Positions 7,075 through 59,840 of a stretch of 64,000 nucleotides of DNA are shown one piece after another. Below the pieces are notes generated by a model. That model saw nothing but the letters and a program-made list of their open reading frames with translations. It was not told the DNA's origin and did no database searches. This stretch comes from Bacilli bacterium. Its GTDB lineage: Bacteria > Bacillota_I > Bacilli_A > ML615J-28 > CAG-698. Both the position numbers and the translations under genes were made by a program. Every line of letters begins with the position of its first letter. Within the stretch, counting starts at the first letter, position 1. Location of the stretch: the NCBI GenBank assembly GCA_028702495.1, contig JAQVOS010000002.1:39-64038 (forward strand), written 5' to 3'.

Positions 7075-7808
7075 AACAGTTGTTTTAAAAATGCCATTGA
7101 TTGTTCGAGCAATTGCGTTTTCGAAGGTTCTTCATCATATCCATGACCCGATTCATTTACGATATGAAGCCTGGAATTGGGGAATTTGACTGTATAGGTT
7201 ACCCCTGTCAAATAAGGGACAGCTTTATCTTGACGTCCATGAATCACTAAAACGGGTTTTTCGAATGATTCACATTCACGGAAGGGATCAATATCAGCCA
7301 TGGAATCGATTAATTCTCCTGATAACTCAAACCCTGCTGAATATACATGACCATTTTCCATTTTTGGAGCAGCATCAAAACGCTCTTTCATTTTTTGATA
7401 CATCGTTCCTGCTGGGGACCATAATAGAAGGCGATCAATCGCAATTTCGTTGCACACAAGAGCAGCGATGGCACCTCCCATTGAAAATCCCATCAGAGAG
7501 ATGGTTTCAATCCCAGGAAAGTTTTTAGCCGTTTGAAGCATGAGTTTTGCATCTTCGATGGCTTCAAGATATGAGAATTCATAGAATTCACCATCAGATT
7601 CTCCATTACAACTGTAATCCATCCGTAGCGAAGCAATGCCTTGCTCATTCAAAAGACGTGACATGGTACGAAAATAGCCATTGTGTTCGGTTTTATTACC
7701 GGTATAGCCATGTAACATCACCACACAACGATTTGCTCCTTCGGGATGATCTAGATAGCCTCGTAACACGCGATTTTGCTTGTTTATGATTTCGATGTGT
7801 TGAATCAT
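7071..7808 (-). CDS. Alpha/beta-hydrolase-fold esterase or peptidase (S9/BD-FAE-like)
   Basis: Nucleophile-elbow motif GFSMGG, HGYTGN and the catalytic His near the C-terminus (ESGHGY). Its start overlaps the murQ stop by 4 nt. Confidence 0.7.
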   Translation of the reverse strand: MIQHIEIINKQNRVLRGYLDHPEGANRCVVMLHGYTGNKTEHNGYFRTMSRLLNEQGIASLRMDYSCNGESDGEFYEFSYLEAIEDAKLMLQTAKNFPGIETISLMGFSMGGAIAALVCNEIAIDRLLLWSPAGTMYQKMKERFDAAPKMENGHVYSAGFELSGELIDSMADIDPFRECESFEKPVLVIHGRQDKAVPYLTGVTYTVKFPNSRLHIVNESGHGYDEEPSKTQLLEQSMAFLKQLF

Positions 7809-8713
7809 TTTCCTGCCTCCTTGAGCGCTTTATGAATATTTCCGCCTGCAGCATTCAGGAATTGATCAATGGTTATTTCATCTTGAATCCCACTAAGTTG
7901 ACTAAAAAGAGCTTTTTTAACGGTGTGATATTTTTGTAGCAAAAGCGTTGCTTCTTCATTAGATATTTGAAGGGCTTCTTCAAGGATGGATTGCGCTCTT
8001 TTTACGAGTTTCTCATTGGTTGCTTGAACATCAATCATGAGGTTTTCATAGACCTTTCCCATTTTAATCATGGAAGCCGTTGATAGCATATTACAAATCA
8101 TCTTTTGCGCTGTTCCTGATTTCATTCGCGTTGATCCAGTTAAAGGTTCAGCACCCGTAATGGCTTCAATCGGATAAGAAACGAGTGATGCGAGCTCACT
8201 GTTTACTGATGTAACAATACAAGAAGTTAAGCACCCTAGCTTTTTCGCATATTCAATGCCACCAATGACATAAGGTGTTCTTCCTGAGGCGGCAATCCCG
8301 ATGACGATGTCGAGATTGGATAAATTAATGGCCTTAAGATCTTCAACTGCCATTACTTTATTGTCTTCAGCCCCTTCAACCGCTTTGACCATGGCTTTCA
8401 TGCCACCAGCCATAATGCATTGTACCATATCGGGGGAAACGGAGAAGGTGGGTTGACATTCGACTGCATCAATGAGCCCAATACGACCACTGGTCCCGGC
8501 TCCGAGATAAATCATACGCCCACCTGCTTCAAATGTTTTTACAATCGCATCGACTGTTTTTGCGATTTGAGGTAAAACTGCTTCGACGGCATAAGCGACG
8601 ATTTTATCTTCTTCATTCATAGCACGAACCATTTCTTCTGTGGACATTTGGTCAATGTGAATGGTTCTTAAATTTCTTTTTTCAGTTCCTATTTTTTTTA
8701 AATCGATGTTCAT
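7805..8713 (-). CDS. murQ: N-acetylmuramic acid 6-phosphate etherase
   Basis: SIS-domain protein with a MurQ-type N-terminus (TEKRNLRTIHIDQMSTEEMV), GAGTSGR and the conserved C-terminal region. Sits next to anmK. Confidence 0.85.
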   Translation of the reverse strand: MNIDLKKIGTEKRNLRTIHIDQMSTEEMVRAMNEEDKIVAYAVEAVLPQIAKTVDAIVKTFEAGGRMIYLGAGTSGRIGLIDAVECQPTFSVSPDMVQCIMAGGMKAMVKAVEGAEDNKVMAVEDLKAINLSNLDIVIGIAASGRTPYVIGGIEYAKKLGCLTSCIVTSVNSELASLVSYPIEAITGAEPLTGSTRMKSGTAQKMICNMLSTASMIKMGKVYENLMIDVQATNEKLVKRAQSILEEALQISNEEATLLLQKYHTVKKALFSQLSGIQDEITIDQFLNAAGGNIHKALKEAGK

Positions 8714-9831
8714 TCTTTTTGCTTTGGACTCGGTGTAATTTGACCTAAGACCACGGGCATTTTTGCACCTGTGGCGGAAGGAACATTACTTGGTTTTCCA
8801 CTTAAGGTCATGTATCCAAGGATGGCGAAAGCAACGGCTTCCTTGGCATCACTATTGAGTCCAAACTCCTCTCCTGTTATGATAGTGAACTGTGTTATTT
8901 CTCGAAGACGTTTTAAAATATAGTGATTATGACTTCCACCCCCACAAATAACCGCACAATCAATCTGCTTGATAAAATGTAGGTATTGATAGGCAATCGA
9001 GTAAGCTGTTAATTCGGTGATGGTTGCAATAATATCTTGAGGACGGTAATTCGCGAATTGATAAGTTTCACTGAGTGTTTCCATAAATTCTTGACTATAT
9101 TGCTCGCGTCCCGTTGATTTGGGAGGTATCCGAGTAATAAAAGCATCTTGTTTTAAATGGTTAAAAATAGTCTCTATCACATGTCCTGACAGGGCAATTT
9201 TACCATCTTCATCATAGGGTTTATTATAATATTTGTGAGTGAAGTAATCAATCATGATGTTTCCAACGCCACAATCGAATGATTTAACTTCCTCCATCGT
9301 TGCTCCAACGGGAATATATGTCAAGTTACTGATTCCCCCAATGTTTTGTAAAACAAGGTTTATGGGGGTATTACGATATAAATAGTATTCAGAGAAAGGG
9401 ACCAAAGGTGCTCCTTCTCCGCCAGCGGCGATATCCATCACTCGAAAATTCGACACAACTTGAATGTTGGTATGATAAGCAATGATGCTCGCTTCGCCAA
9501 TTTGTAGTGTTGAAGGAATTTGTCCTTTTGGATCATGCCATATGGTTTGTCCATGAGATGCAACAAAGGCGATGTCTTGATAGGTATAGGGGGTTCCTTG
9601 AAGCAGGTTGTCAATGGCTTTTACAAACCAATGTCCTAATTCAAAATTAAGCGTTGAGATTTCTGAAAGTTTGGCCGTTTTCACATTTAAATTGCGAAAA
9701 AGACGATTTTTAAAATCTTGATCGTAGGGAAGTGTATGAAATTTGATTAATTTTACTTCCTCTTGAATATCGACCAGAGCTGCATCGACACCATCAAGAG
9801 AGGTTCCACTCATTAATCCGATGGCTAACAT
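8710..9831 (-). CDS. anmK: Anhydro-N-acetylmuramic acid kinase
   Basis: N-terminus MLAIGLMSGTSLDGVDAALVDI is diagnostic of AnmK. 4-nt overlap with murQ. Confidence 0.85.
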   Translation of the reverse strand: MLAIGLMSGTSLDGVDAALVDIQEEVKLIKFHTLPYDQDFKNRLFRNLNVKTAKLSEISTLNFELGHWFVKAIDNLLQGTPYTYQDIAFVASHGQTIWHDPKGQIPSTLQIGEASIIAYHTNIQVVSNFRVMDIAAGGEGAPLVPFSEYYLYRNTPINLVLQNIGGISNLTYIPVGATMEEVKSFDCGVGNIMIDYFTHKYYNKPYDEDGKIALSGHVIETIFNHLKQDAFITRIPPKSTGREQYSQEFMETLSETYQFANYRPQDIIATITELTAYSIAYQYLHFIKQIDCAVICGGGSHNHYILKRLREITQFTIITGEEFGLNSDAKEAVAFAILGYMTLSGKPSNVPSATGAKMPVVLGQITPSPKQKE

Positions 9832-10739
9832 AATAGATTCATCCTTTTCACTTTATAATAAGCACCAAATATGGGATCAAAATCCCCTTCTACAAATTTT
9901 AAACTGATATTGTCTTCTTTTAAGGTTAGAAGCAATTCTTCTTGAGTGATGCGTGAATTCATGATAAACCCACCTCTAAAACCAATGACGGCCTCTTCAT
10001 CAAGTTTTAGATTTTGAACTGCTTTTTTTACATCCACGGCCAAATCACGCCCTGCTTTTTTTAAAAGTTGAATGGCTTCTTGATTATTCTTTAATGCTGC
10101 TTTGCTAACAACATCTGCGAAGGCAGCAATTTCGCGTTTGGTTCGATGATAGACAAAGGAGCGAAGGTCATAAATGCTACTTGCTCCAATTACTTGAAAA
10201 AACTGTAGTGTTAAAGGGGATAATGTTTGATTGGTCTCATATTGATGAATGCTTTGGCACATAAGATCGCGTACGGTTGTAAAAGCAGATCCCACTTCCG
10301 TAAGCATATGGCCAAATCCACCAATGAGTTGCGTTTCATTGTTATGAAGCCCCAAAACGGCTGATCCAGTACCTGATAATACGAGGATGCCTTGATTATA
10401 TAAGTCAGTAACAATCGAGTATAATGCGATACTAGCATCATTATCGATGTAAGTAGGAATATGATAAGTTGCTTCGTAATCTAAGCGAATCTCTTCAAGA
10501 TTGGTGATAACCCCTAATCCAGATAGACCCATGGATATACAAACAATCTCGTATTGTAAATGGGCAAACTGATAAGCTTTATCAACACCCAATCGAATAT
10601 TTTCAAGGGCTTGATCGCCGACAACGGCAGGAGAACCTGAGCCTTCAATGGTTGTAAAAAGAATGTTTTTGAGTGCATCAATGATGCATACTTTGGTCTT
10701 GCTGCCACCCGCATCAACGGCAATGATTACTTTTTCCAT
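9825..10739 (-). CDS. BadF/BadG/BcrA/BcrD-type ATPase, a putative N-acetylmuramic acid / N-acetylglucosamine kinase (MurK-like)
   Basis: N-terminus IIAVDAGGSKTKVCIID is the ASKHA sugar-kinase phosphate-1 motif. 7-nt overlap with anmK. Confidence 0.7.
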   Translation of the reverse strand: MEKVIIAVDAGGSKTKVCIIDALKNILFTTIEGSGSPAVVGDQALENIRLGVDKAYQFAHLQYEIVCISMGLSGLGVITNLEEIRLDYEATYHIPTYIDNDASIALYSIVTDLYNQGILVLSGTGSAVLGLHNNETQLIGGFGHMLTEVGSAFTTVRDLMCQSIHQYETNQTLSPLTLQFFQVIGASSIYDLRSFVYHRTKREIAAFADVVSKAALKNNQEAIQLLKKAGRDLAVDVKKAVQNLKLDEEAVIGFRGGFIMNSRITQEELLLTLKEDNISLKFVEGDFDPIFGAYYKVKRMNLLC

Positions 10740-13345
10740 GGTACAACGCCTCGAATCTGAAAACGGAATTTTTGACCTGGACGAATTTCATTCAGTAAGT
10801 AGTCGCTGATATGAGCGATTCCCACCACATTGACACGTTCATCAAAGGGGAGCTCTTGACGCATAATGGTGAGTTCTCCTTGATAACGGAGGAATCCTTC
10901 ATTATCAATGGTCACCATCTTCTTCTTGCGGTCAAAGGTATTTCGCTTAGGAATGGTATTGAGTTCACGCATGGAAGAACGAACACCATAAGGGTTCTCA
11001 TCTGTTCTATTGGTGTGAACTTTATTCAGTATGGTTCGTCCAATGTCACTGATTCCTTCAAATACATCAATAGGAATGGTAATTAGATCGCGATTGTACG
11101 TTAAAGCTTCTTCGAGTTCTTCAGCACTACAATAGGCATCACCAAAGCATACTTCGTCTACTTCTAGCATAGCCAAATCAGCCAAGGAAGCAAGGAGGTC
11201 CATTTGACGATGTTCTTCAATTGTTGGAAGTCCTTCATAGATGGGAGGACGTTTTCCATGACTAGATGGAACATAAGCCATAATATGCAGACCTAATGAT
11301 TTATATAAGAGGTTTCGATTTAATACGTCTTCTTGACTAAGTCCCGTGTAGGGTTTAGGATAAAAATTATGGCTAATTCTTAACTTTGAAAAATCAATTC
11401 CTCGAGAAATCAAGAATTCAATTTCTTCACGATGAGCAATGGAGGCATTGATTTCAATAAAGAAATCATTTTTTGATAATTCAAGAATATCGTCACATGT
11501 AAAGCCCCAATCTAATCGTAGAGAATAAATTCCTTTAGGAATTCCAATTCGGTCTAAAACTTTCTTTGAAACATCTAAAATAACTTTTAACCCCAACTCG
11601 TTGGCGTAATTGATGGTTGCCACTAAGTCTTCTAAAAAATCGGGTAAAGCTTCAGGCATATGAGCTGAAATAAAGATGGTATCAACATTTTTCGACTTCA
11701 AGAAAACCATGTATTCAAAGTTTTTAGCTTGAGGATAGTCTTCTAATCCGACGTAAACAGATGCAAAAACATTGAAGGGACGAACAAGCGTGATGGGAAC
11801 TTTCCCCCGAGGGGTGATATTACCAGCTAAGTATTCCACAACCGCTTGAACAGAATTGGGAGTATATTCGTATAAAGCCAAATAGTTCTCTACATTGTCC
11901 AAAACAAGATAATCGTACGGATTTCTCATTGAAATAACGAAAGTCTTTTTCGCTTTATTGATGATGGTATTAATCATCTTCGTTTGGTTTTTATAATTGG
12001 CAGCATTGTAACTACAAATAATGACTGTGTCATAATTTGCTACTTCATTAATCAAACGAGCATCAAATTGATTGAGTTCCATTTTTAAGCATGTAATGTC
12101 AGGAATGCGTTTACGCACTGCTTCAATGACATTTCTAGTATCCATCTTATCTTCCGCAATTGTTGTTGCAAATGGGGCAGTGGCAATGAGAAGGGTTCGA
12201 TCTTTTAGAAAGAAACGTTCTCCCTTAATGCATGTAAGAGATGCAAGGGTGATTTCTTGAGCCTTCTTTTGATTTGATAAATTGGGGAAATACTTAGTAT
12301 TGGCAGGATTATGAAGAAAATTTATATTGATAAGATTCATGCTAGTTTCTTTTGCTTTTAGAATCCGCGCAACTTTTACATCAATTTCTGCTTCAGTAAT
12401 TTTTCCTTCATGAACTGCTTCTTCCATAAGCGTTAGGAAAGCAAGTTGCTTCTCAAGTGTGTGTGAAATACAAACCAAATCAAGACCAGAAATGATTCCT
12501 TGAACTGCTCCCTTTGCAGCACCATAGGTATCATCGATGGCTTTCATTTCCATGCAATCACTGATAATGAGACCATTGAAACCCAATTCTTCGCGAAGAA
12601 GCCCTGTTAGTATTCGTTTGGATAAGGTGGCAGGACGTCCTTCAGTTTCATAAGCCGTGAAATAGATGTGGGCACTCATGATGGCACCTACACCCTCAGC
12701 AATGGCTTTTTTAAAAGGAACAAGTTCCGTGCTATGAATGTCTTCAATACTTTTTGTAATAACAGGAAGTCCTAAATGACTATCGACAACGACATCGCCA
12801 TGACCGGGAAAATGTTTGGCAGTCGCAAGAAGTCCATCTTTTTGCATTCCTTTGATGAAAGCAGTTCCCATGGCTGCGACCATGTGGGGATTATCCCCAT
12901 AACTGCGAACACCAATAACGGGATTTTTTGGATTGTTGTTTACATCAAGAACAGGAGCCAAATTAAGATTGATTCCAAGATGTGACAATTCATCACTCAT
13001 GATGGAACCAATTACTTCCGCATTGCCTTTTTCTGTGGCGGAAAGCGTCATCGCTCCAGGGCAAAATGTAGCCCCATTCATAATGCGTGTCACAATTCCG
13101 CCCTCTTGATCGATGGAAATGAGCGGCATTATTCCCGTGTGTTCCATCACTTTTTGATGAATTGTACGATTAAGGGTTGATAGTTGGTCAATAGAATGAA
13201 TATTACGAGCAAATAAAATCACATTCCCTACTTGATGCTCTTCAATTAAGGAGCGCATGTGTTGATTGTATTCATATCCATCAAAACCTGCGACGAGCAA
13301 TTGTCCGATTTTTTCTGTGAGCGTCATATCATTTATTTTTTTCAT
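10727..13345 (-). CDS. Two-domain fusion (872 aa). An N-terminal GH3 beta-N-acetylglucosaminidase (NagZ-like, ~520 aa) is joined to a C-terminal ~350-aa TIM-barrel-like domain that resembles the DUF871/MupG 6-phospho-N-acetylmuramidase family
   Basis: GH3 motifs ISIDQEGG, KHFPGHGD..VDSH and LIISDCMEMKA. The C-terminal half (ILDVS..LRLDWGF..ISHNFYPKPYTGLS..HIMAYVPS) lacks any GH3 C-terminal domain signature. Its DUF871 assignment is from memory and is tentative. Confidence 0.65.
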   Translation of the reverse strand: MKKINDMTLTEKIGQLLVAGFDGYEYNQHMRSLIEEHQVGNVILFARNIHSIDQLSTLNRTIHQKVMEHTGIMPLISIDQEGGIVTRIMNGATFCPGAMTLSATEKGNAEVIGSIMSDELSHLGINLNLAPVLDVNNNPKNPVIGVRSYGDNPHMVAAMGTAFIKGMQKDGLLATAKHFPGHGDVVVDSHLGLPVITKSIEDIHSTELVPFKKAIAEGVGAIMSAHIYFTAYETEGRPATLSKRILTGLLREELGFNGLIISDCMEMKAIDDTYGAAKGAVQGIISGLDLVCISHTLEKQLAFLTLMEEAVHEGKITEAEIDVKVARILKAKETSMNLININFLHNPANTKYFPNLSNQKKAQEITLASLTCIKGERFFLKDRTLLIATAPFATTIAEDKMDTRNVIEAVRKRIPDITCLKMELNQFDARLINEVANYDTVIICSYNAANYKNQTKMINTIINKAKKTFVISMRNPYDYLVLDNVENYLALYEYTPNSVQAVVEYLAGNITPRGKVPITLVRPFNVFASVYVGLEDYPQAKNFEYMVFLKSKNVDTIFISAHMPEALPDFLEDLVATINYANELGLKVILDVSKKVLDRIGIPKGIYSLRLDWGFTCDDILELSKNDFFIEINASIAHREEIEFLISRGIDFSKLRISHNFYPKPYTGLSQEDVLNRNLLYKSLGLHIMAYVPSSHGKRPPIYEGLPTIEEHRQMDLLASLADLAMLEVDEVCFGDAYCSAEELEEALTYNRDLITIPIDVFEGISDIGRTILNKVHTNRTDENPYGVRSSMRELNTIPKRNTFDRKKKMVTIDNEGFLRYQGELTIMRQELPFDERVNVVGIAHISDYLLNEIRPGQKFRFQIRGVVPWKK

Positions 13346-13354
13346 TCCAAACTC

Positions 13355-14491
13355 CTAATATAATAAATATTGTTTTCGTTCTTCTGCAAACTTCTTTGAA
13401 TCACGGGCGATGATATTCCATTGTTCTTCTAAGGAATAGGTTTCTTTCAAAATATAATCACACCCAGTGTTGAGTTCAAGCATTCGATTTCCACCTGCTT
13501 TATAGGGAGGTAAAACCTCAAAAGCATTAGGGTATAGTCGACGAATGATAGCAAGCATGGACCATCCCGTTTTCACCGCTTCAAATGTGTTTTTATCGGT
13601 AATGTGAACATGAACCCCTTTGCATAAGAATCCATTATGCTTCGAAAAAGTAGGGGTAAATGTGATGGGCGTAAAAAGCACTCCAGGAAGATGTAGTTCA
13701 TTCAATGCGGTTGTGAGTTCTCTTGGATTCATATAAGGTGCTCCGATGTATTCAAAAGGTTTTGTGGTTCCTCTTCCTTCAGAAACATTAGTCCCTTCAA
13801 AAATACAGGTGCCATTATATAAATAACAAGTTTCAAGCGTAGGAACATTGGGAGATGGACACAGCCATGGTAAACGAGTATCATGGAAGTCCATTGAGCG
13901 TTTCCAACCTTCCATAGGGATGATGGTCAAATGACAGCCAATCCCAAAATGCTCATTAAACATTTTTGCCAACTCACCAATGGTCATCCCATGACGTTGA
14001 ACAATTGGATAATATCCGATAAATGACCGGTATTCTAGATCAAGGATGTTCCCTTCACAAACTTCTCCGCCAACGGGATTAGGACGATCAAAAACAACAA
14101 ACTCTTTCTTTGCCTCACTACAAGCCATCATCGAATATGCCATGGTATAAATGAAGGTGTAAAAACGAGAACCGACATCTTGAATATCAATGCAAATTAT
14201 GTCAATCGTATCAAGCATTTCCTTGGTGGGACGTTTATCTTTGGTGTATAAACTATGAGCAATGATACCAGAATCTTGATCGATATAGGAATCAAAATGG
14301 ATTCCAGCTTGAAATTCACCGCGAACACCATGTTCTGGCGAAAATAAGCACACTAAGTTTACTTTTTCCTTCAATACATCAATGGTTGTCGTCATCTGGC
14401 TATTGGTTCCTGTTGGGTTGGTGATGAGTCCAACTCGCTTGTTGGCAAAGAGCGTAAGATAGCGATCAATATTGTCAATTCCGAGTTTCAT
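13355..14491 (-). CDS. namZ: DUF1343 family protein (YbbC/NamZ-like exo-beta-N-acetylmuramidase, GH171-like). The start is at the ATG at 14489-14491
   Basis: DUF1343-type sequence with its N-terminal VGLITNPTG..VLK...V...LF.PEHG signature region. AAAGGA RBS lies 8 nt before the second ATG. Sits next to the NagZ fusion and murQ. Confidence 0.7.
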   Translation of the reverse strand: MKLGIDNIDRYLTLFANKRVGLITNPTGTNSQMTTTIDVLKEKVNLVCLFSPEHGVRGEFQAGIHFDSYIDQDSGIIAHSLYTKDKRPTKEMLDTIDIICIDIQDVGSRFYTFIYTMAYSMMACSEAKKEFVVFDRPNPVGGEVCEGNILDLEYRSFIGYYPIVQRHGMTIGELAKMFNEHFGIGCHLTIIPMEGWKRSMDFHDTRLPWLCPSPNVPTLETCYLYNGTCIFEGTNVSEGRGTTKPFEYIGAPYMNPRELTTALNELHLPGVLFTPITFTPTFSKHNGFLCKGVHVHITDKNTFEAVKTGWSMLAIIRRLYPNAFEVLPPYKAGGNRMLELNTGCDYILKETYSLEEQWNIIARDSKKFAEERKQYLLY

Positions 14492-15158
14492 TTGAACCAT
14501 CCTTTCTTTCCATAAGATCTTGATTTTCTTGATGGATTAACATCCAATATGTTTTTTTAAATAGGAGATGTCCTGCTAAAATGGGGATGCTAAGACAAGT
14601 GACGGCCCACAAGGGAACAAAGACGATATACAATAATACTTCAAGAGCGATGATGAGTACACACCCTAAACTTGAGGCGATATGTTTAGTGGCAACATAA
14701 AAAGCAAAACGGAAATTATCAAAATAGCGAAAATTGAAATGAGTATAGATCATCGGCAATTGAATCGTAATGAGCAGGAGCAATACCATCGCAAAAGCCA
14801 CAAAATAAAAGCCGATAACCGATATTGTTGTTAGTATTCCTACACCTTCTGAAGTTTCAGAATAAAAAATAAGAGCAACGACAAATACGATTGCGGCACC
14901 AATGATAAAGATGTTCCCTTCTAATGGACGAATAAAGTTATTTTTTAGGTTTCTAAAATAAGCGGAAAAAACATTTTTTTCTTCTCCGGCAGTATAATCA
15001 TAGATTGTTTTATAACACGCTGTAATACTAGGAAGGAAAGTGATAATCCCTAATGAAGTGATGAGTGTTAAAATATTGAGTACTGTAATTCGCCATACCC
15101 AATCGAAGAAACGATATATTTTACTGTTTACAAACTTTTCAATGTTCATATCCAACAT
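14475..15158 (-). CDS. DUF624 (YesL-like) integral membrane protein
   Basis: Multi-pass hydrophobic protein with the conserved N-terminal region RFFDWVWRITVLNILTLITSLGIITFLP that is typical of DUF624. Confidence 0.65.
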   Translation of the reverse strand: MLDMNIEKFVNSKIYRFFDWVWRITVLNILTLITSLGIITFLPSITACYKTIYDYTAGEEKNVFSAYFRNLKNNFIRPLEGNIFIIGAAIVFVVALIFYSETSEGVGILTTISVIGFYFVAFAMVLLLLITIQLPMIYTHFNFRYFDNFRFAFYVATKHIASSLGCVLIIALEVLLYIVFVPLWAVTCLSIPILAGHLLFKKTYWMLIHQENQDLMERKDGSNETRN

Positions 15159-16966: not shown

Positions 16967-17061
16967 ATTTTTTCTTTCCTCCTCGATAATTTTTTGTTAG
17001 TTTGTTTATATACTTTAGGACTTTCTCCTAATAGCCAAATAAAAAATATAACTGAAAATGT

Positions 17062-29142: not shown

Positions 29143-29144
29143 TA

Positions 29145-34943: not shown

Positions 34944-34980
34944 AGGAACTCCCATCAATAAATGAAATTCAGTATAGACA

Positions 34981-35070: not shown

Positions 35071-35111
35071 GGTAAAAAAAGACATGAACTGATATATTAT
35101 CAGTTCATGTC
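35071..35111 (-). terminator. Rho-independent terminator after queH
   Basis: Perfect 14-bp stem gacatgaactgata / tatcagttcatgtc, followed on the minus strand by a U7 run. Confidence 0.7.
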
Positions 35112-43198: not shown

Positions 43199-43253
43199 TT
43201 TGTTTACCACATTTTCTATGCATTATTTTATCATATTTTACGTCTTTATTCAA

Positions 43254-52723: not shown

Positions 52724-52771
52724 GTTTTTTATCTCCTCTCCTTATTGTATCATACTCTTATTGAGAATGAT

Positions 52772-52799
52772 AGCAAAAAGGGTCATGTTTTCATGACCC
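52772..52799 (-). terminator. Rho-independent (bidirectional-type) terminator overlapping the stop of the CAT-like gene
   Basis: Stem gggtcatg-tttt-catgaccc flanked by an A-run and a T-run. Confidence 0.65.
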
Positions 52800-53566: not shown

Positions 53567-53589
53567 TATTAACATTGGAGGAATTATAT

Positions 53590-56500
53590 ATGAAGAAAAT
53601 TATCGTCTTTTTATTGGTTGTTGGTTTGTTTTTCTTTAGTGCCTGCACCAAAGAAGTTACTTACGAACTAACACTCAATGAAGATAACGTCACACTGTAT
53701 GTGGGAGATGTCTATGAAGTGGATTATACAGCAACTGCCAATGGAAAAGAAGCCGATCTGGACGTCACACTCATTACAAGCTCAACAAAAGTCACAATAG
53801 AAGGAAGTAGTATTACTCCTCTTAGTGTTGGGACTGCTAACATCACCGTCGTCTTAGATGAAGATCAAACACTCTTAAAAGCCCTAACCGTGACCATTGT
53901 GAACCCACTTGTCATAACAGAATCCCTAGATGAAATATTTGTGGGGGAAAATATAACCCTATCTGTCGATGATCTTCGCTCTGCTGATCGTTTAGGAACT
54001 CTGACTTGGTCAACCGATGCTCCCGGAGTTGCTACCGTCGAAAACGGGATTGTCACTGGGGTTGGTTCTGGAACAGCCACCATCACCGTAGAAAGTGAAG
54101 AAGGCCTCACTGCAAGAAAGGATATCACCGTTATGTATCGCACGATAACAGGTATCAGTATCAATCCCCTCGAAGAAACATTATACATCTTTGGTTCTAC
54201 TACTTTAGAAGCAACTGTTACTCCTAGCAATGCTGATGGACGCATCACTTGGTCTTCATCCGATACAGACATTGCTTCCATTGATGAAAATGGTAACATC
54301 ACTGCTCATTCAGTTGGAACTGTTACCATCACAGCCACTTCTGTTGCGAACTCGACAATTCAAGCTACTTATGAATTCGATATAGAAATTGATCCCATTG
54401 CCATCATGGCTTCGCTTAACAATCCAAATCCAATCAATCAATTGGTTACTACCTATGGAAATACTGAACTTCAACAAACCGTTTATGGAAGTGTCTCAGA
54501 CTATTTCTTTAGCACCCTTAATCTCATCGATCAAACTGCTAACACTCCCATTACCTTATTGGGGGGAACTGGGCTTACCAATACTTATGCGGGTCTAACA
54601 GCGACCCCTGCGATGCTTCTTGAGGCAGAACCTAAAAAGTTTACTCGTTCTGGCATTTTACATCCAGAAACAACCTATATTACCTACCATGATACAGGGA
54701 ATAATTCTGCAGGAGCCAACGCGATGATGCACCAAAACTATTTGGTGGGTTCATACAATCTGAGTGATCGTGCTCGTTCATGGCATTATACGGTTGATGA
54801 TGATTCCGTGGTTCATCACATTCCCGATAATGAAGTGACATGGCAAGGTGATAGCTACACCAGCTATGCTTACTCCATCGGTATTGAAACCGCCGTTGAC
54901 TTTGGGTCTGATCTCTATGCCACTTGGCATCGAACTGCAAAACTCATGGCTCAACTCATGATTACCTATGATATACCTTTCGAAAACATTGTTCAACACT
55001 ATGACTGGAATGGTAAAAATTGCCCTCAAACCTTACGTCGTAACAACTTATATCCTAAAGCTATGGAAATGGTTCAAGCAGAATTCATGGTAGCCACTTA
55101 TTTATCAGAATATACCATGACCATGACCTCACTCAATCCTGAGTATGTGGATAATCGCGGTCGCGTGGTTGCCCTCCCAGAAACAGCAACTCGCATTGGC
55201 TATCTCGTTCGTATTCAAAAAGGTGAATATGATGAAAGCATCATTTTATATAGCAATCTTCCCGGTCAAGATTCAACCACCACTCCTGTCCTTCCTGGAA
55301 CTGGTACTGATTTAGAAGCAGCAGAAATTTTTGATCAGGGTGTTGCCAATCTTCCTTATACCGTAACAGCTACCGATGATGGTGATATCAAAGCCATGAG
55401 AATTGCTTATAACTGCTTATCCGAAGTGCAACGAAGCTTGGTAACAACTCTTGACTACTTAGAAGCCAAAGAACTAGCCCTTCATGGACTCGATGCTGTA
55501 GCAACACCGCTTGTCATCCATGAAATTTATTCAAGTGATAATGATACCCTATCCCATGGGTTTGTTGAAATATACAATACAACGAATCAAGATATTTCCT
55601 TAAATGGTTATGCTCTCCAAATCAATAATGGTGCTTCTACATCCGTCTTTACCTTTGCAGCCACAGCATCCATTGGTCCAAAGAAAACTTACTTGGTTCA
55701 ATTTGAAGCAACTGCCAATTCGAATGGAACATATTTACCGCTCCCAGATGATGTATCTACGATTCATTTATCGAAGAATGGCTTTGTTGCCCTCACCAAT
55801 TCACTAGAACCATTGGCATCTGCAACGGGTGCCAACGTCATCGACTTTGTTGGGATGGGAACAGGTGCCCTCTTTGAAGGTGTTGCGACCTCAAGTGCTA
55901 ATCAAGACAATCGTTCAATCACTCGCTGGGGTTCCATCGACACCAATCAAAATGCAACTGATTTCAAATCAACTCTACCAACTCCACAAAACTCAAATGG
56001 TCATCTAATTGATACCGATATGAGTGATAATGAAAAGGCAGCAAGAAGTGTTGATTTACTAATTCTTGCTCTTCCTCATGAACTCACAACCGATGATCAA
56101 TCAAAAGTTGCAACCACTCGTACTTCTTACAATGATCTATCCAGTGAAGTAAAAGGTCTTGTCACACTTCTACCATTGCTTGAAGCAAAAGAAACCGAAA
56201 TTGAAGGCTTACTTGATCCAAATCTACAAGTCATCAATCAAGCCATCGCAACCATGAGTCGTCATATTACCGATGATTATGTTTTACCAACCGCTGGTGG
56301 TATTGTATGGTCTTATAAAGCAGGACAAGATACCTCATATTTTGATATTGCAACGGGAACTTATTTGAGATTATCTTATGGATACAAACCAATCACCCTA
56401 GTTGCAACCGTCAATACAACCTCAAAAGAAATTCTCATTAATTTTGGAGTTCTTGAAGCAGGACAAAAGAGCATCTTCTACACAGGAGCTTCTCTACCTG

Positions 56501-57111
56501 CAGCGGGCCAAAATACTGGTGATGGCAAGGGAACTGCTGCTGAACAAGCTGCAAAAGTAGGCTTTGCTGGAATCGCTTTAGTAGTGGATGGAAAAGTATA
56601 TTATGTAGCCGAAAAGAGTTATATTCCGCTTTCTGACGCCCTATCAGGCAGCACCCTCATGATGGAAGATCTACGTCCTTATGGATCCTCTTCGGATTCT
56701 AGCGCTGCTTATAATCAATCTCTTGTTCGTGGCGTGCCAACAGGTTACGCCGGAGCTGGAACACTCTATGAAAACACCTCAAATGTTGACTTATCCTTTG
56801 ACCCAAGCTTCACTTACGGACGTAATAATAGTGGTGCTTATGGCTATGCAAAAGTCGTGTTCAGCCCCAATGGAGATGGAACCTATACGATTAAAACGGC
56901 ATGGGAAAATAGCGGAACCAACACTAGTACCAGTGGTCTTACTAAAACACTGAAACCAGGAGAACTCTTGTGGTGTCCACATACCTATGATACAAATGCA
57001 ACCATGGGTACATGGTGTACACAACCTGGTACTTCAACTTTAGGTACTCCAGCATTAATCGTTGACCATCAAATCACACTCGTATTCTTTAAAACATCGT
57101 TTACAAACTAA
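53590..57111 (+). CDS. Giant surface lipoprotein (1173 aa): three Big_2 domains, an Amidase_2 / PGRP-type N-acetylmuramoyl-L-alanine amidase domain, a lamin-tail (LTD) domain, and a long C-terminal region of unknown fold
   Basis: Lipobox FSAC. Big_2-like repeats. Amidase_2 motifs (ITYHDTGN, SWHYTVDDDSVVHHIPDNEV, SIGIE, HYDWNGKNCPQ). LTD-like segment (LVIHEIYSSDNDTLSHGFVEIYNTTNQDISLNGYALQINNG). This is the only confident plus-strand gene. Confidence 0.75.
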   Translation: MKKIIVFLLVVGLFFFSACTKEVTYELTLNEDNVTLYVGDVYEVDYTATANGKEADLDVTLITSSTKVTIEGSSITPLSVGTANITVVLDEDQTLLKALTVTIVNPLVITESLDEIFVGENITLSVDDLRSADRLGTLTWSTDAPGVATVENGIVTGVGSGTATITVESEEGLTARKDITVMYRTITGISINPLEETLYIFGSTTLEATVTPSNADGRITWSSSDTDIASIDENGNITAHSVGTVTITATSVANSTIQATYEFDIEIDPIAIMASLNNPNPINQLVTTYGNTELQQTVYGSVSDYFFSTLNLIDQTANTPITLLGGTGLTNTYAGLTATPAMLLEAEPKKFTRSGILHPETTYITYHDTGNNSAGANAMMHQNYLVGSYNLSDRARSWHYTVDDDSVVHHIPDNEVTWQGDSYTSYAYSIGIETAVDFGSDLYATWHRTAKLMAQLMITYDIPFENIVQHYDWNGKNCPQTLRRNNLYPKAMEMVQAEFMVATYLSEYTMTMTSLNPEYVDNRGRVVALPETATRIGYLVRIQKGEYDESIILYSNLPGQDSTTTPVLPGTGTDLEAAEIFDQGVANLPYTVTATDDGDIKAMRIAYNCLSEVQRSLVTTLDYLEAKELALHGLDAVATPLVIHEIYSSDNDTLSHGFVEIYNTTNQDISLNGYALQINNGASTSVFTFAATASIGPKKTYLVQFEATANSNGTYLPLPDDVSTIHLSKNGFVALTNSLEPLASATGANVIDFVGMGTGALFEGVATSSANQDNRSITRWGSIDTNQNATDFKSTLPTPQNSNGHLIDTDMSDNEKAARSVDLLILALPHELTTDDQSKVATTRTSYNDLSSEVKGLVTLLPLLEAKETEIEGLLDPNLQVINQAIATMSRHITDDYVLPTAGGIVWSYKAGQDTSYFDIATGTYLRLSYGYKPITLVATVNTTSKEILINFGVLEAGQKSIFYTGASLPAAGQNTGDGKGTAAEQAAKVGFAGIALVVDGKVYYVAEKSYIPLSDALSGSTLMMEDLRPYGSSSDSSAAYNQSLVRGVPTGYAGAGTLYENTSNVDLSFDPSFTYGRNNSGAYGYAKVVFSPNGDGTYTIKTAWENSGTNTSTSGLTKTLKPGELLWCPHTYDTNATMGTWCTQPGTSTLGTPALIVDHQITLVFFKTSFTN

Positions 57112-57113: not shown

Positions 57114-57155
57114 AAAAAAAGCCATGGATATCAATATTTTCCATGGCTTTTTTTA
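57114..57155. terminator. Bidirectional rho-independent terminator shared by the two convergent surface-hydrolase genes
   Basis: aaaaaaagccatgga-tatcaatattt-tccatggcttttttt: a perfect stem with an A-run and a T-run. Confidence 0.8.
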
Positions 57156-59792
57156 TTATCTAGTGGAGTGGCCTTCGCCATCTGTTGCCCCACTAATATC
57201 AAAGGTAAAGGATTCACCTTCATAACTAGGGTATTCAGGCAATCCATATCCTGTAATTTTACTATACAATAACGTATAACTGCGTTTAGCAACCATATCA
57301 CTCGTATTCCCTTCGATGGTATAAACGGTCGTACCATCACACGAAATGACAATACCTGTATGAGAGGCTCCATCGCTCTTAAAGAAGATGAGATCTCCTG
57401 CTTTAGGAACATAATTTTCTTTGTATTGAAACAATCCTCTCGTCTTAAACCAATCCATGCCAATACTGACTGATGCATACTTAGGAATAATATCGGTCGA
57501 TATTCCTACTTGATTGCTACACCAAGAGACAAACATTGCACACCACGCTTGATTAGGCAGTCCATACCATGTCCCAAACTTGGTATCATTGTTCGTTCCT
57601 TCTCTATATCCTTCTTCACTTAATGCTTTTTGTAAGAGTAAATGGATGTAATCAATATTAATAGACTTGCCTACGATAATCGGGAATGTGGTGGTGTAAG
57701 TTCCTTTTGATATGGTTAAGATCGCTGTCCCTTCTTTCAGGGGAGTAATAATGCCTTCTTGATTGACCGTAAAGATGGATTGATTACTCGATGAAAATAT
57801 TGCATTCTCATCACTTAGCATCTTGGGATTTGAATCCAAATGAACGAGATTACTTCCATATACTTTAGGACTCGCAAGTAGTGCATCGTAACTAGATAGG
57901 GGTTCATTGCTAGAAGCTCCCATAAACTTAGAACTATGAGAAGCAAGTGCAATTGGATGAGTGGTATCCGTTCCATAAAAATTATGATTCATGTTGATAT
58001 TAGATGGATTGGAGGCTTCTGTATCAGTACTATTCTTATTCTTTAAATAATAAGTACTAGGCAAGCCAATAAAAGTATTATAATTGATGAAGGCTTTGAA
58101 ACGAACTTGATTGGCTACAGCTGCATTATTACGAAGTAAAATGTAGTTTGCACAATCTTCAAAATGGTTATAACTCATGTTGATGGTTGTTAATCCTTCT
58201 TGATAATTTCTAAAGGATACAGCTCCCGAAAATTGAACTGTTTTTTTGCCAACTTCAATAAATGTATTATCAAAAATTGAAATAATGTTTTCAATATTGG
58301 GGGATTTTGATCCATATGTTCTAAAAAAGATGCCATTATATTCGCCATTTTTAAAAGTATTACCCATGATGACCCACTGACAACTTTTATTCACGATACC
58401 ATTTGACATTCTGATGGCATCCTTTGAAAACCCATCAAACGTATTATTGATGATTTTAAAGGAATCCATATTTGATAAAAGAATGCCCATATCCCCAAGG
58501 TTCGAAAAGTGATTGTTTTCAATAATCACATTATTAGAATATTTTGTACCTCCTACAAATAGGAGGAATCCTGTTCCATAAGTAGCTCCATCTGCCCAGC
58601 TTGTCGCAACCACACTTGTATCTTTCACCACATTGTTGATAAAAGTAAAAGTGTTTGCTTGTCCTTCAGCAGTCACGGTTCCACCTTTAGTAAAACATAA
58701 CCCATTCAATGTAAGTTCTTTTACTTGATCTTGGATTCTAATTTTGCCTTCAAGGATGGCTTCTTCGTCTCGTTCTTGGGTTATAGGATTCTTGTCTTTG
58801 TTAGGGCCAACAATTTTAATTGAACTTTTTGCAATCGTAATGTCCTCATTATACGTTCCACCGAGAAGAACAATCTCTGTATGAAGGATGGCTTCCTCGA
58901 TGGCTTGGGCGATGGTAGGAAAAATGTTCACATTTCGATGATAATCGACTCCACCAATATAAAATATGCTTTGCTCAGGATGTTGATCTATCGATGGATC
59001 AACAATGATTTTTAGTAGACTTGTATTAATGATATCACTAACTTCAATCGTTTGTTCAACAAATTGCATAGGATAGGCTGTTGAAGTAGCTCTAATGGTC
59101 ACTGCACCAACCCCAACAAAATGAATTTCACCACTATTGTTGATGGTAGCCACCGATGTATTACTACTATCCCATGTGACAGGTTCGTGATTTTCGATGG
59201 ATAAAACTCTTGTTTCACACACTAAAGCAGTGGTGTTTGTTTGAAATTCAAACGCGGGAAGGATAATGGGAAGAATGGTAACTGTCGTGGATGCAACGAT
59301 ATCGCTATCCATCATCGCTTCAATTTCAACTTTTCCTGCCGCTAGTGCAATGAGTAAGCCATCACTAGTGATGGTTGCAAGTGTATCATCACTTACTTGC
59401 CAAATCACTTCAAGGGCGAGCTCATCATCAATTAAAAGTTGATAAGGACTTTGTTCACCAACATCTATGGTTTGTTCTCCTGTAATGACATAGATTGGGA
59501 GCGGATGAACGGTGATATCAATCGCAAAGGTTTCGCTTATTCCTTCTAATCCAACAATTAGTATAGCATCTCCTTCTGCTATGGCATTCACTGAAAGCCC
59601 TTCAATGGTGACAATTTCAGGATTTTCATTCATTATGGTTAATGGGGCATTACCAATCACAAATATATCAAGATTAAAACTATCTCCAATCGTTACTTCA
59701 TAAGAGGGAGTATTGACTACAAATGTATCGTTTTGAATGGTACACCCTCCCAAGAAAATCATTAATAGAATCATTAATACAATTTTTTTCAT
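57156..59792 (-). CDS. Surface lipoprotein (878 aa): three Big_2 domains, a right-handed parallel beta-helix (pectate-lyase or tailspike-like) region, another Big_2 domain, and a C-terminal CHAP (cysteine, histidine-dependent amidohydrolase/peptidase) domain. The start is at the ATG at 59790-59792
   Basis: Lipobox LGGC. Beta-helix repeats (IIENNHFSNLGDMGILLSNMDSFKIINNTFDGFSKDAIRMSNG...). CHAP catalytic Cys (NQAWCAMFVSW) and His (GASHTGIVIS). GGAG RBS. Confidence 0.75.
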   Translation of the reverse strand: MKKIVLMILLMIFLGGCTIQNDTFVVNTPSYEVTIGDSFNLDIFVIGNAPLTIMNENPEIVTIEGLSVNAIAEGDAILIVGLEGISETFAIDITVHPLPIYVITGEQTIDVGEQSPYQLLIDDELALEVIWQVSDDTLATITSDGLLIALAAGKVEIEAMMDSDIVASTTVTILPIILPAFEFQTNTTALVCETRVLSIENHEPVTWDSSNTSVATINNSGEIHFVGVGAVTIRATSTAYPMQFVEQTIEVSDIINTSLLKIIVDPSIDQHPEQSIFYIGGVDYHRNVNIFPTIAQAIEEAILHTEIVLLGGTYNEDITIAKSSIKIVGPNKDKNPITQERDEEAILEGKIRIQDQVKELTLNGLCFTKGGTVTAEGQANTFTFINNVVKDTSVVATSWADGATYGTGFLLFVGGTKYSNNVIIENNHFSNLGDMGILLSNMDSFKIINNTFDGFSKDAIRMSNGIVNKSCQWVIMGNTFKNGEYNGIFFRTYGSKSPNIENIISIFDNTFIEVGKKTVQFSGAVSFRNYQEGLTTINMSYNHFEDCANYILLRNNAAVANQVRFKAFINYNTFIGLPSTYYLKNKNSTDTEASNPSNINMNHNFYGTDTTHPIALASHSSKFMGASSNEPLSSYDALLASPKVYGSNLVHLDSNPKMLSDENAIFSSSNQSIFTVNQEGIITPLKEGTAILTISKGTYTTTFPIIVGKSINIDYIHLLLQKALSEEGYREGTNNDTKFGTWYGLPNQAWCAMFVSWCSNQVGISTDIIPKYASVSIGMDWFKTRGLFQYKENYVPKAGDLIFFKSDGASHTGIVISCDGTTVYTIEGNTSDMVAKRSYTLLYSKITGYGLPEYPSYEGESFTFDISGATDGEGHSTR

Positions 59793-59811
59793 ATTTTTCT
59801 CCAATATGACT

Positions 59812-59840
59812 ATTATACTGAATATAAAGGGGGATGTCAA
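59812..59840 (-). promoter_or_regulatory. Consensus sigma-A promoter for the CHAP lipoprotein gene (-35 TTGACA, 17-nt spacer, -10 TATAAT)
   Basis: Minus-strand reading TTGACAtccccctttatattcagTATAAT, ~15 nt before the RBS. Confidence 0.75.

Follow-up and report, generated by a model that had tools for sequence, protein, structure and literature searches.

A lineage-conserved cluster of adjacent operons predicted to capture, import and catabolise peptidoglycan fragments in a Bacilli bacterium of family CAG-698

What is a block of some 50 kb of peptidoglycan and amino-sugar genes for, and does it work as one system? The question is raised by contig JAQVOS010000002.1 of assembly GCA_028702495.1, from an uncultured Bacilli bacterium related to mycoplasmas (order ML615J-28, family CAG-698), of which positions 39 to 64,038 of the forward strand (64,000 nucleotides, hereafter the window) were analysed, and in which a preliminary description had proposed a locus at 7805-59840 that scavenges peptidoglycan or amino sugars. 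Comparative analysis of the encoded proteins and their neighbourhoods suggests that the region is probably a lineage-conserved cluster of about seven adjacent operons that captures, imports and completely catabolises peptidoglycan fragments, and probably other N-acetylglucosamine (GlcNAc) glycans as well.

Scanning of the 45 open reading frames (ORFs) of at least 100 aa in the window against Pfam and NCBIfam revealed that 28 of the 36 genes at the coordinates first proposed, 7805-59840, belong to peptidoglycan or amino-sugar families (Table 1). Nearly all of the preliminary family calls were borne out by this hidden Markov model annotation, MurQ, AnmK, DUF1343/NamZ, LdcA, Amidase_2 and CHAP among them, none of these six being reassigned to unrelated families, and the curated NCBIfam equivalog cutoffs were exceeded by MurQ, AnmK, NagB, LysA and the GH3 part of the GH3::MupG fusion. 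The remaining eight genes, encoding QueH, Dus, two ABC (ATP-binding cassette) exporter halves, a DUF1295 protein, a GFO/IDH/MocA protein, a PfkB kinase and a CAT-family acetyltransferase, have no evident link to the theme. MurQ, AnmK, NamZ, MupG and LdcA are each usually single-copy at most, and since all five lie within 30 kb here and the gene order is also kept in other genomes, the clustering is far beyond chance. None of the 45 ORFs matched phosphotransferase system (PTS), NagA or RpiR families, so that the absence of a MurP-type PTS, NagA and an RpiR/MurR regulator, as first reported, holds for the window, and gene content likewise supports the proposal that ABC import and kinases take the place of a PTS. 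Three points were absent from that description: the Etf/D-lactate dehydrogenase genes at the left, the lytic-transglycosylase identity of the DUF187 protein and the GlmA identity of one GNAT protein.

Regarding the core of N-acetylmuramic acid (MurNAc) and GlcNAc metabolism, MurQ scored 357.8 bits with TIGR00274 (cutoff 302, residues 10-297) and AnmK 435.3 bits with NF007148 (cutoff 387). The adjoining BadF-type kinase is presumably a MurK-like MurNAc/GlcNAc 6-kinase, given that both characterised MurK enzymes belong to the BadF/BcrAD family (PMC5790795); its best NCBIfam match, NagK_SO3507, was far under cutoff, and it is 23-28% identical to the kinases of clostridial clusters. In the fusion protein, the GH3 domain passed the NagZ model NF003740 (225.1 bits, cutoff 207), and MupG_N and MupG_C scored 180.4 and 83 bits (residues 529-863), above the gathering cutoff. 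The fusion recurs in 21 related loci; in DUOT01, the CAG:698 group and Halanaerobium, GH3 and MupG are adjacent yet separate. No PTS family match that could represent a MurP-type partner of MupG was found in the window ORFs or related loci. Both NamZ domains are full length (NamZ_N 281.8 bits, NamZ_C 163.3 bits), and neither this NamZ nor those of 12 relatives has a signal peptide, unlike the secreted founding member. The second GH3 enzyme shares 33% identity with the corresponding part of the GH3::MupG protein and reached 176.1 bits with the NagZ model (cutoff 207); its homologue measures 759 aa in loci L023 and L024, and is 250 residues longer in some relatives.

GlmA is a glucosamine/glucosaminide N-acetyltransferase linked to the recycling of de-N-acetylated murein. 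The tandem GNAT protein encoded beside NagB aligned over its full length (residues 6-303 with 5-313, E 1.6e-46) with PDB entry 5KF1, which is GlmA (PMC10936415). At 8106-11239 of locus L087 (GCA_964590685.1, CAZPXW010000006.1), which is 92-97% identical to the window, each of the genes for GH3, NagB and the GlmA-like protein is broken into two ORFs, with intact neighbours, reflecting either assembly frameshift errors or recent pseudogenisation of this operon. MurQ stands next to the alpha/beta-hydrolase gene in about 25 related loci; the hydrolase is presumably an esterase (e.g., a de-O-acetylase) or a peptidase by its family matches, and its candidacy as a substitute for the missing NagA was dropped, as nothing supports it. 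Divergent copies of the DUF624 protein hold the same position in relatives.

The predicted unit reaches left to about 3585, with EtfB, EtfA and an FAD-linked oxidase following MurQ and the hydrolase, a 105-bp gap separating the hydrolase from EtfB. EtfB, EtfA and a FAD_binding_4/FAD-oxidase_C protein thus stand in one cluster, as in the definition of the lct cluster, the lctB-lctC-lctD gene type being D-lactate specific (PMC8914356). The FAD oxidase is a candidate LctD-like, NAD-independent D-lactate dehydrogenase, which likely starts at the ATG at 4979 with a one-base overlap with the EtfA stop codon; EtfA carries an N-terminal ferredoxin-like Cys motif (C23P and C40xxC43xxC46). In more than 12 related loci the triad likewise comes after MurQ, and the FAD oxidase adjoins MurQ in more than 12 loci, including that of Haloplasmataceae (L038), where the triad has a MurR-type regulator on one side and an Amidase_2 lipoprotein on the other. 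Neither a lactate permease nor a racemase is present at the triad, and its position directly after MurQ and the hydrolase without these genes suggests an internal source of D-lactate; the triad would presumably oxidise the lactyl moiety of MurNAc. The block is closed by the syntenic 776-aa Big_2 lipoprotein, homologues of which (737-2193 aa) occupy this position in about 18 related loci, those in L012, L014, L031 and L032 reaching 1500-2200 aa; a profile search of the PDB with this family gave Ig-like matches only.

Regarding murein chain cleavage and stem peptides, the GHL10 protein is a homologue of the catalytic domain of Cwp19 (5OQ2, E 3.5e-61, residues 43-426), an enzyme that yields 1,6-anhydroMurNAc (PMC6016235), so that AnmK has a potential substrate source inside the locus. 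Neither a leader nor CWB2 repeats were found in the window protein, and the N-termini of the relatives checked are likewise leaderless. LdcA scored 141 bits with the NCBIfam muramoyltetrapeptide carboxypeptidase model (cutoff 378). Between the second tandem GNAT and the GlmA homologue, identity is 22% (E 5e-10), which makes them distant paralogues; the second gave no 5KF1-type match in the PDB search, and its gene accompanies that of the beta-lactamase-fold protein in Clostridium loci as well. Leaderless homologues of the beta-lactamase-fold protein occur in clostridial and Paenibacillus clusters, and from this neighbourhood we infer a muropeptide amidase or DD-peptidase. The LysA part of the LysA::M19 fusion reached 412.7 bits with TIGR01048 (cutoff 297.9, residues 9-428), and Peptidase_M19 204.3 bits (cutoff 26, profile positions 104-314). 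Read by eye in the translation, the M19 metal motifs DIHSD, LEG, DLAH, SHG and GFDF look intact, their HxD, E, H, H and D residues being what we take to be the binuclear-zinc ligands. This architecture was seen in over 110 protein clusters, which all stem from this organism group and bear no functional name beyond 'diaminopimelate decarboxylase'.

The preliminary description had further proposed two LplABC-type importers with giant binding proteins, of which the two permease pairs and the 991-aa solute-binding protein (SBP) stand, the supposed second giant, of 1049 aa, being a glycosidase-like DUF5696 protein. The orphan SBP with a Big_2 domain was called correctly, a profile of its C-terminal 460 aa matching only solute-binding proteins in the PDB (4g68 with E 1e-6, GacH and maltose-binding proteins); it is probably the binding protein of the second permease pair, and is duplicated in L017, L032, L033 and L040. 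CUT1/LplABC-type parts thus comprise four BPD_transp_1 permeases and these two SBPs. For this class a shared ATPase encoded elsewhere is usual, and ABC_tran domains were detected in the window only in the two exporter-type half-transporters. The N-terminal extension of the 991-aa SBP (about 590 aa), with faint matches only to Golvesin_C, CBM_35 and PKD, may be a glycan-capturing arm. DUF5696 gave no PDB sequence match and no Pfam family besides its own, and its structure model (pLDDT 90) matches GH129, GH101, GH36 and GH13 glycosidases, with an N-terminal beta-sandwich and a (beta/alpha)8 barrel as in GH129; identity with GH129 is 12-14%, and acidic residues in the barrel are conserved. As modelled, DUF5696 is glycosidase-like with a GH129-like fold, on which evidence a role as binding protein was rejected. 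The Yip1-family protein is kept between DUF5696 and the propeller protein as far as Izemoplasma. The propeller protein has over 300 homologues, to none of which a Pfam family is assigned, and its AlphaFold2 model (pLDDT 83.5) gave Foldseek matches to NHL propellers; a PDB sequence search gave nothing useful, and the fold is too generic to point to a function.

Membrane-tethered lytic enzymes adjoin the catabolic genes, in agreement with the surface enzymes first noted. Lipoboxes are present in the GH18, 439-aa SGNH-like, Amidase_2, CHAP and both Big_2 proteins (the 776-aa protein and the Big_2-SBP), and the 991-aa SBP and DUF5696 carry membrane anchors. No wall-binding modules (LysM, SH3b, CWB, SLH, LPXTG) were detected by Pfam in the six tethered surface proteins, which have Ig-like spacers. 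NamZ, both GH3 enzymes, GH20, GHL10, LdcA, the beta-lactamase-fold protein, the GNATs and LysA::M19 are leaderless here and in every relative checked. In the SGNH esterase lipoprotein first proposed, a lipobox and a GDSL motif were found, and the Pfam match stayed below threshold (Lipase_GDSL_2, 15.6 bits with a cutoff of 32.9, E 0.023); Pfam membership is accordingly unproven, a PDB sequence search gave nothing useful, and the protein, which adjoins Amidase_2 in L005, L006 and L090, is a candidate O-acetyl esterase that may act like an SGNH esterase. GH18, with ChiD as its best NCBIfam match, has one to three paralogues at this position in relatives. A common module of about 57 residues outside the Pfam domains (residues 818-874 of the amidase and 31-87 of GH18, 36% identity) may be a substrate- or surface-binding module. 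The CHAP gene is convergent with Amidase_2 in the window and in L091. A perfect sigma-70 consensus (TTGACA-17-TATAAT, 12/12) at 59840-59812 lies inside the annotated long CHAP ORF, and because it is just upstream of an internal Met that begins the signal peptide, the true start is probably the M19 codon near 59792.

Table 1. Features of the window, with coordinates in the numbering of the 64,000-nucleotide stretch.
Feature	Coordinates	Strand	Basis and remarks
776-aa lipoprotein with Big_2/aBig_2 domains	1024..3354	-	Pfam; lipobox LAAC
FAD-linked oxidase (GlcD-like)	3585..4979	-	FAD_binding_4 + FAD-oxidase_C; GlcD-like, under NCBIfam cutoff
EtfA, LctC-like	4979..6169	-	ETF + ETF_alpha
EtfB, LctB-like	6178..6966	-	ETF domain; NCBIfam EtfB-like match
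Alpha/beta-hydrolase	7071..7808	-	Hydrolase_4/Abhydrolase matches; overlaps MurQ by 4 bp
MurQ, MurNAc-6-phosphate etherase	7805..8713	-	Products GlcNAc-6-phosphate + D-lactate
AnmK, anhydro-MurNAc kinase	8710..9831	-	PF03702, E 9e-104
BadF/BcrAD-type sugar kinase	9825..10739	-	PF01869, 75.4 bits (cutoff 31.5)
Fusion of GH3 NagZ and MupG (6-phospho-N-acetylmuramidase, GH170)	10727..13345	-	Pfam GH3, MupG_N, MupG_C
NamZ exo-beta-N-acetylmuramidase (GH171)	13355..14500	-	NamZ_N + NamZ_C; no signal peptide
DUF624 membrane protein	14475..15158	-	PF04854; accessory common beside sugar ABC importers
Lipoprotein, Big_2 + ABC solute-binding domain (Big_2-SBP)	15271..16968	-	Lipobox; PDB profile match
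Tandem GNAT, GlmA homologue	17109..18026	-	PDB 5KF1 match
NagB, glucosamine-6-phosphate deaminase	18023..18745	-	TIGR00502, 297 bits (cutoff 237)
Second cytoplasmic GH3 beta-N-acetylhexosaminidase	18749..20260	-	PF00933
ABC importer permease pair 2 (perm1, perm2)	20312..22409	-	BPD_transp_1
DUF5696, N-terminally membrane-anchored extracellular glycoside-hydrolase-like protein, 1049 aa	22414..25563	-	GH129-like fold (model)
Yip1-family polytopic membrane protein	25574..26305	-	PF04893
Type-I membrane protein, 650 aa (propeller protein)	26235..28187	-	Signal peptide, NHL-type beta-propeller, TPR region, C-terminal transmembrane helix
ABC importer permease pair 1 (perm3, perm4)	28198..30131	-	BPD_transp_1; paralogous to pair 2
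991-aa membrane-anchored SBP	30143..33118	-	SBP_bac_8/SBP_bac_1 at residues 595-891; N-terminal transmembrane anchor
Cytoplasmic GH20 beta-hexosaminidase	33111..34958	-	Glyco_hydro_20 and 20b; first gene of predicted importer operon
QueH, tRNA modification	35105-35704		Housekeeping; same position in relatives
GHL10 (formerly DUF187), Cwp19 lytic transglycosylase homologue	35729..37072	-	PF02638, 171 bits
LdcA-type LD-carboxypeptidase (S66)	37020..37967	-	Peptidase_S66 + S66C above Pfam cutoff
Second tandem GNAT	37971..38942	-	Pfam; distant paralogue of GlmA homologue
Cytoplasmic beta-lactamase/PBP-fold hydrolase	38953..39990	-	PF00144; best NCBIfam PBP4B, 173 bits, below cutoff
Fusion of LysA (diaminopimelate decarboxylase) and M19 dipeptidase	39992..42184	-	Pfam, TIGR01048
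Dus, tRNA modification	42221-43210		Housekeeping; same position in relatives
GH18 chitinase-like lipoprotein	43323..44945	-	PF00704; lipobox
439-aa lipoprotein, coiled coil + SGNH-like domain	50517..51836	-	Lipobox; GDSL block I motif 'ILCIGDSLT'
1178-aa lipoprotein, 2x Big_2, Amidase_2 (MurNAc-L-Ala amidase), LTD domains	53575..57111	+	Pfam; lipobox; kept next to locus
Lipoprotein, Big_2 + right-handed beta-helix + CHAP peptidase/amidase	57156..59846	-	Pfam; lipobox at residue 32 of long ORF

Of the 45 ORFs, 44 are encoded on the minus strand, GC content is even across the window (35-42%), no tRNAs were found in it, and an Rfam search of the 64 kb gave no riboswitch or other RNA, so that no RNA-based regulation was found. 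Terminator-like intergenic hairpins follow perm1 (20306-20278), QueH (35111-35081, a palindrome with a 14-bp stem, terminator-like on both strands) and GH18 (43295-43272), and good promoter matches precede GH20 (35019-34991), LysA::M19, Big_2-SBP, DUF624, the exporter pair and CHAP. Instead of the single unit first proposed, this arrangement suggests about seven transcription units interleaved with housekeeping and unrelated genes: CHAP; Amidase_2; the exporters with GH18; LysA::M19, the beta-lactamase-fold gene, GNAT, LdcA, GHL10 and, apparently last, QueH; GH20, SBP, two permeases, propeller, Yip1, DUF5696 and two permeases; GH3, NagB and GlmA; and Big_2-SBP followed by DUF624, NamZ, GH3::MupG, kinase, AnmK, MurQ and hydrolase, with the Etf/lactate dehydrogenase genes next.

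The exporter genes (44958-48493) encode a heterodimeric, MsbA-like pair, below cutoffs, which is directly upstream of GH18 in all three full-length relatives; the first terminator-like hairpin is the one behind GH18. At 51833-53447 lie the PfkB kinase (best match pseudouridine kinase, below cutoff) and the CAT-family acetyltransferase; both are absent from this position in L090, L005 and L006 and consequently look like a window-specific insertion. The window flanks (112-990 and 60405-63542) encode YmdB, a peroxiredoxin, a small GNAT and a secreted purple-acid-phosphatase-like metallophosphoesterase with no evident link to the locus.

Homologues of the locus were found in metagenome-assembled genomes (MAGs) labelled Bacilli, Acholeplasmataceae, Acholeplasma, Tenericutes, Mollicutes and 'Coprobacillus CAG:698'. 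From the amidase past the Etf genes to the Big_2 lipoprotein, a stretch of about 50 kb, the entire gene order is the same in two other genomes, DUOT01000015.1 (L003+L088+L026) and ERZ27247376 k141_1788399 (L005+L089), at roughly 50-65% protein identity; the left half is kept in about 20 MAGs and partial versions in about 25 further genomes. Contigs at about 70% identity also carry the SGNH-Amidase_2-CHAP trio, with neither PfkB nor CAT in it, and a metagenome scan with the amidase lipoprotein gave only two informative short contigs. In relatives (L005 908-1882; L006 18183-19662), an rve-family transposase lies between the amidase and SGNH-like genes, and in one of them a HipA/HipB-type toxin-antitoxin pair also lies between QueH and GH20; the block hence tolerates insertions at operon borders. 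Unmatched ORFs of about 35 related loci added no NagA, PTS or regulator. In Izemoplasma and Haloplasmataceae, reduced versions place permease-propeller-Yip1-DUF5696-permease directly upstream of NamZ-GH3-kinase-(AnmK)-MurQ-NagB, the Haloplasmataceae cluster also holding a MurR-type regulator, the Etf/lactate dehydrogenase triad, an Amidase_2 lipoprotein and a secreted GHL10. In the walled Clostridium, Paenibacillus, Halanaerobium and Brevibacillus, genes for MurQ, BadF kinase, ABC permeases, NamZ, GH3, AnmK, the beta-lactamase-fold protein and GlmA-like GNATs form smaller clusters.

Thus, a coherent path from murein fragments to fructose 6-phosphate, pyruvate and lysine can be proposed, in which the gene families rest on homology and the order of events is inferred. 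At the surface, the tethered amidase, CHAP, SGNH-like, GH18 and DUF5696 enzymes would loosen and trim foreign or shed murein, and the two binding proteins would hand oligomeric muropeptides, not monosaccharides, to the two ABC permease pairs, energised by an ATPase encoded elsewhere. In the cytoplasm, the GlmA homologue would re-acetylate glucosamine ends, and GH3/NagZ, GH20 and NamZ would peel off sugars stepwise, or GHL10 would cut chains to anhydroMurNAc ends. AnmK and the BadF kinase would then generate MurNAc-6-phosphate and GlcNAc-6-phosphate, with MupG taking any phosphorylated disaccharide, and MurQ would release GlcNAc-6-phosphate and D-lactate. The former would pass through NagA, encoded elsewhere, to glucosamine 6-phosphate and through NagB to fructose 6-phosphate, and the latter would be oxidised to pyruvate by the lactate dehydrogenase/Etf proteins. 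Regarding the stems, the beta-lactamase-fold enzyme and LdcA would trim them, the M19 domain would cleave a dipeptide containing a D-residue, and the fused LysA would decarboxylate the released meso-diaminopimelate (DAP) to lysine. The use would be nutrition from necromass or neighbouring cells, with recycling of the own wall as well if the host is walled; catabolic outputs, surface enzymes without wall-binding modules and the large size of the locus led us to judge the system primarily nutritional.

Several points weigh against this interpretation. Neither the window nor about 35 related loci contain NagA, an importer ATPase, a regulator or a gamma-D-Glu-DAP peptidase, so that of the near-complete murein route first claimed the path stands and its completeness within the window does not, and without a PTS the scheme lacks a source of MurNAc-6-phosphate-GlcNAc for MupG. 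We know of no precedent for a cytoplasmic lytic transglycosylase or a cytoplasmic NamZ, Cwp19 and B. subtilis NamZ being secreted. Consensus matches in both the promoter and the terminator scans occurred at shuffle-background density, with only a few intergenic hairpins usable, so that the evidence for the predicted operons is weak. Part of the conservation is mere synteny, as Dus and QueH are kept at the same positions inside the block in relatives and PfkB, CAT, GFO and DUF1295 are interspersed. GH18, GH20, the 991-aa SBP and DUF5696 carry no murein-specific signature, and relatives of DUF5696 in GH129 and GH101 cut alpha-linked sugars, not the beta-1,4 bonds of murein. The GH20-SBP-permease-DUF5696 operon and GH18 could target chitin or other amino-sugar glycans. 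Taken further, the locus would be mainly one for such glycans, with GH18, GH20, the SBP, the permeases and DUF5696 using chitin, glycoprotein glycans, teichoic-acid sugars or exopolysaccharide and simply adjoining a small MurNAc operon. The ChiD match of the chitinase-like GH18, weak best matches of the 991-aa SBP that include the chitobiose binder NgcE, the position of GH20 at the head of the importer operon and the closeness of the DUF5696 fold to alpha-GalNAc-ases and alpha-glycosidases are all consistent with this, and yet we consider it somewhat unlikely: in Izemoplasma and Haloplasmataceae the permease-propeller-Yip1-DUF5696-permease module is contiguous with NamZ-GH3-kinase-MurQ without any GH18 or GH20 there, and the window holds at least 12 murein-specific functions (NamZ, MupG, MurQ, AnmK, Cwp19-like, LdcA, GlmA, LysA::M19, Amidase_2, CHAP and others). 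This alternative may hold for one operon and leave the rest unaffected. That there is no functional super-locus, and that independent operons are adjacent through frozen gene order in a slowly rearranging, strand-biased lineage, would fit the strand bias, the ABC exporter pair kept with Dus and QueH inside the block, the hairpins after perm1, QueH and GH18, and the insertion of PfkB and CAT in the window; it is nevertheless very unlikely in our judgement, given the single metabolic theme of 28 of the 36 genes and the rejoining of modules in different arrangements in Haloplasmataceae, Izemoplasma, Clostridium and Paenibacillus, which indicates that the linkage is functional and not purely historical.

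Whether the host has a wall bears on the remaining alternatives. A thin-walled host could use an enlarged version of the Firmicute turnover pathway for recycling of its own wall only, with the amidase and CHAP lipoproteins as autolysins: LdcA, AnmK, NagZ and MurQ are classic recycling enzymes (PMC5061867), the core set is also found in Clostridium, Paenibacillus, Halanaerobium and Brevibacillus, which have walls, 'Coprobacillus sp. CAG:698' is among the relatives, most members of the family CAG-698 are predicted to possess a wall (PMC10868615), and 75% of bioreactor 'Tenericutes' that group with ML615 keep mraY and murG (bioRxiv 2020.01.21.914887). The output of the locus is nonetheless catabolic (NagB, D-lactate oxidation, DAP decarboxylation), with no AmgK/MurU or Mpl-type salvage genes in the locus, more than 50 kb is large for housekeeping turnover in a small-genome lineage, and the six tethered proteins are free of wall-binding modules. 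A reduced cluster is moreover present in Izemoplasma, which is wall-less by transmission electron microscopy (PMC8397711) and in which the cluster must hence act on foreign murein, not on an own wall. Recycling as the sole role is therefore distinctly unlikely, and both roles can coexist. At the other extreme, the host may be a wall-less lineage on the reduction path from Bacilli to Mollicutes, possibly like Izemoplasma, living partly on the murein of other bacteria by means of tethered enzymes, import of whole muropeptides, cytoplasmic digestion, D-lactate oxidation and DAP-derived lysine; DUF5696 would then be a new glycosidase family working with the propeller/TPR and Yip1 proteins between the two permease pairs. 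This is an unlikely, speculative scenario, and it was not adopted as the main explanation because the literature on related orders is mixed, Acholeplasmatales, RFN20 and ML615J-28 being predicted to comprise both thin-walled and wall-less species (PMC10868615), and because the bioreactor 'Tenericutes' mostly keep mraY and murG.

Regarding novelty, every enzymatic step belongs to a known family and the core pathway is the known Firmicute MurQ recycling route. The claim that such a locus had not been described as a unit stands in so far as a literature search limited to open-access papers found no description of one in this lineage, and falls short in that its core is already known and also clustered in the walled genera named above. 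What sets the locus apart is the wiring: ABC import with kinases, exo-enzymes that are all cytoplasmic, NamZ together with MupG, a leaderless Cwp19-type enzyme, attached D-lactate and DAP-to-lysine branches, and an embedded extracellular propeller/TPR-Yip1-DUF5696 module. Sediments, digesters and guts contain much organic carbon and nitrogen in the form of peptidoglycan, and dedicated 'murein utilisation loci' have hardly been described outside recycling model organisms. The locus provides a concrete conserved gene set for an ABC/kinase route with intracellular exo-enzymes, pairs NamZ with MupG against their reported mutual exclusion, offers a predicted cytoplasmic Cwp19-type enzyme that would feed AnmK, and links MurQ directly, at the genomic level, to D-lactate oxidation. 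It also draws attention to the widespread and so far uncharacterised LysA::M19 fusion, gives a first structural hypothesis of DUF5696 as a glycosidase and bears on the livelihood of wall-reduced Bacilli and relatives of Mollicutes.

Among known systems, the recycling genes MurK and GlmA of Clostridium acetobutylicum, reportedly described by Reith and Mayer in 2011, comprise a BadF/BcrAD-type MurNAc/GlcNAc kinase and a tandem-GNAT GlmA that re-acetylates glucosamine ends, both with homologues in the window. Surface lytic lipoproteins, a pair of importers with large binding proteins, DUF5696/propeller/Yip1, LysA::M19 and Etf/lactate dehydrogenase are additions of the window. The murQ-murR-murP-amiE-nagZ-namZ(ybbC) operon of Bacillus subtilis (PMC8054146) likewise clusters MurQ, GH3 NagZ and NamZ for sequential exo-digestion from the non-reducing end to GlcNAc-6-phosphate, and the beta-lactamase-fold hydrolase of the window may take the peptide-removal role of AmiE. 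In B. subtilis, however, NagZ, AmiE and NamZ are secreted and the MurNAc monosaccharide enters via the MurP PTS under MurR (PMC8054146), whereas the three counterparts in the window are leaderless and ABC uptake and phosphorylation by kinases replace the PTS, with no MurR. NamZ and MupG were reported to be mutually exclusive across genomes (PMC8054146), contrary to their joint presence here. In the MurP-MupG-MurQ system of Staphylococcus aureus (GH170; cited in PMC8054146), a two-domain MupG also stands beside MurQ, but the window has no MurP PTS, and its MupG is fused to a GH3 NagZ and lies beside NamZ.

The closest analogue in topology is the recycling pathway of Escherichia coli (AmpG, NagZ, AmpD, LdcA, AnmK, MurQ; PMC5061867), in which whole muropeptides are also imported and dismantled in the cytoplasm. 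There, import is by AmpG instead of ABC permeases, Mpl re-ligates the tripeptide that the window would degrade, turning DAP into lysine, and lytic transglycosylases are periplasmic, whereas the anhydro ends in the window would come from cytoplasmic GHL10; a cytoplasmic AmpD-type Amidase_2 is lacking in the window, with the beta-lactamase-fold protein as the candidate in its place. Tannerella forsythia (MurT-MurK-MurQ, NamZ1/2, AmpG), which shares the BadF-type MurK, MurQ and NamZ, exploits foreign peptidoglycan with a defective wall pathway of its own (PMC5790795, PMC7670621), but it has a Gram-negative envelope and builds its wall via anabolic AmgK/MurU, in contrast to the catabolic output of the window locus, which holds no anabolic salvage genes. 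Clostridioides difficile Cwp19 (PMC6016235), an autolysin with a signal peptide and CWB2 repeats, has a catalytic domain homologous to GHL10 (E 3.5e-61); the window protein lacks both features and is predicted to be cytoplasmic, and in Haloplasmataceae the homologue is secreted. Haloplasmataceae also retain the MurR regulator that is lost in the window locus. The lct (LctBCD) clusters of anaerobes (PMC8914356, PMC12630350) have EtfB, EtfA and an FAD-dependent, NAD-independent D-lactate dehydrogenase in the same order as the window, where the triad, free of a lactate permease, racemase and LutR, instead directly follows MurQ and the alpha/beta-hydrolase.

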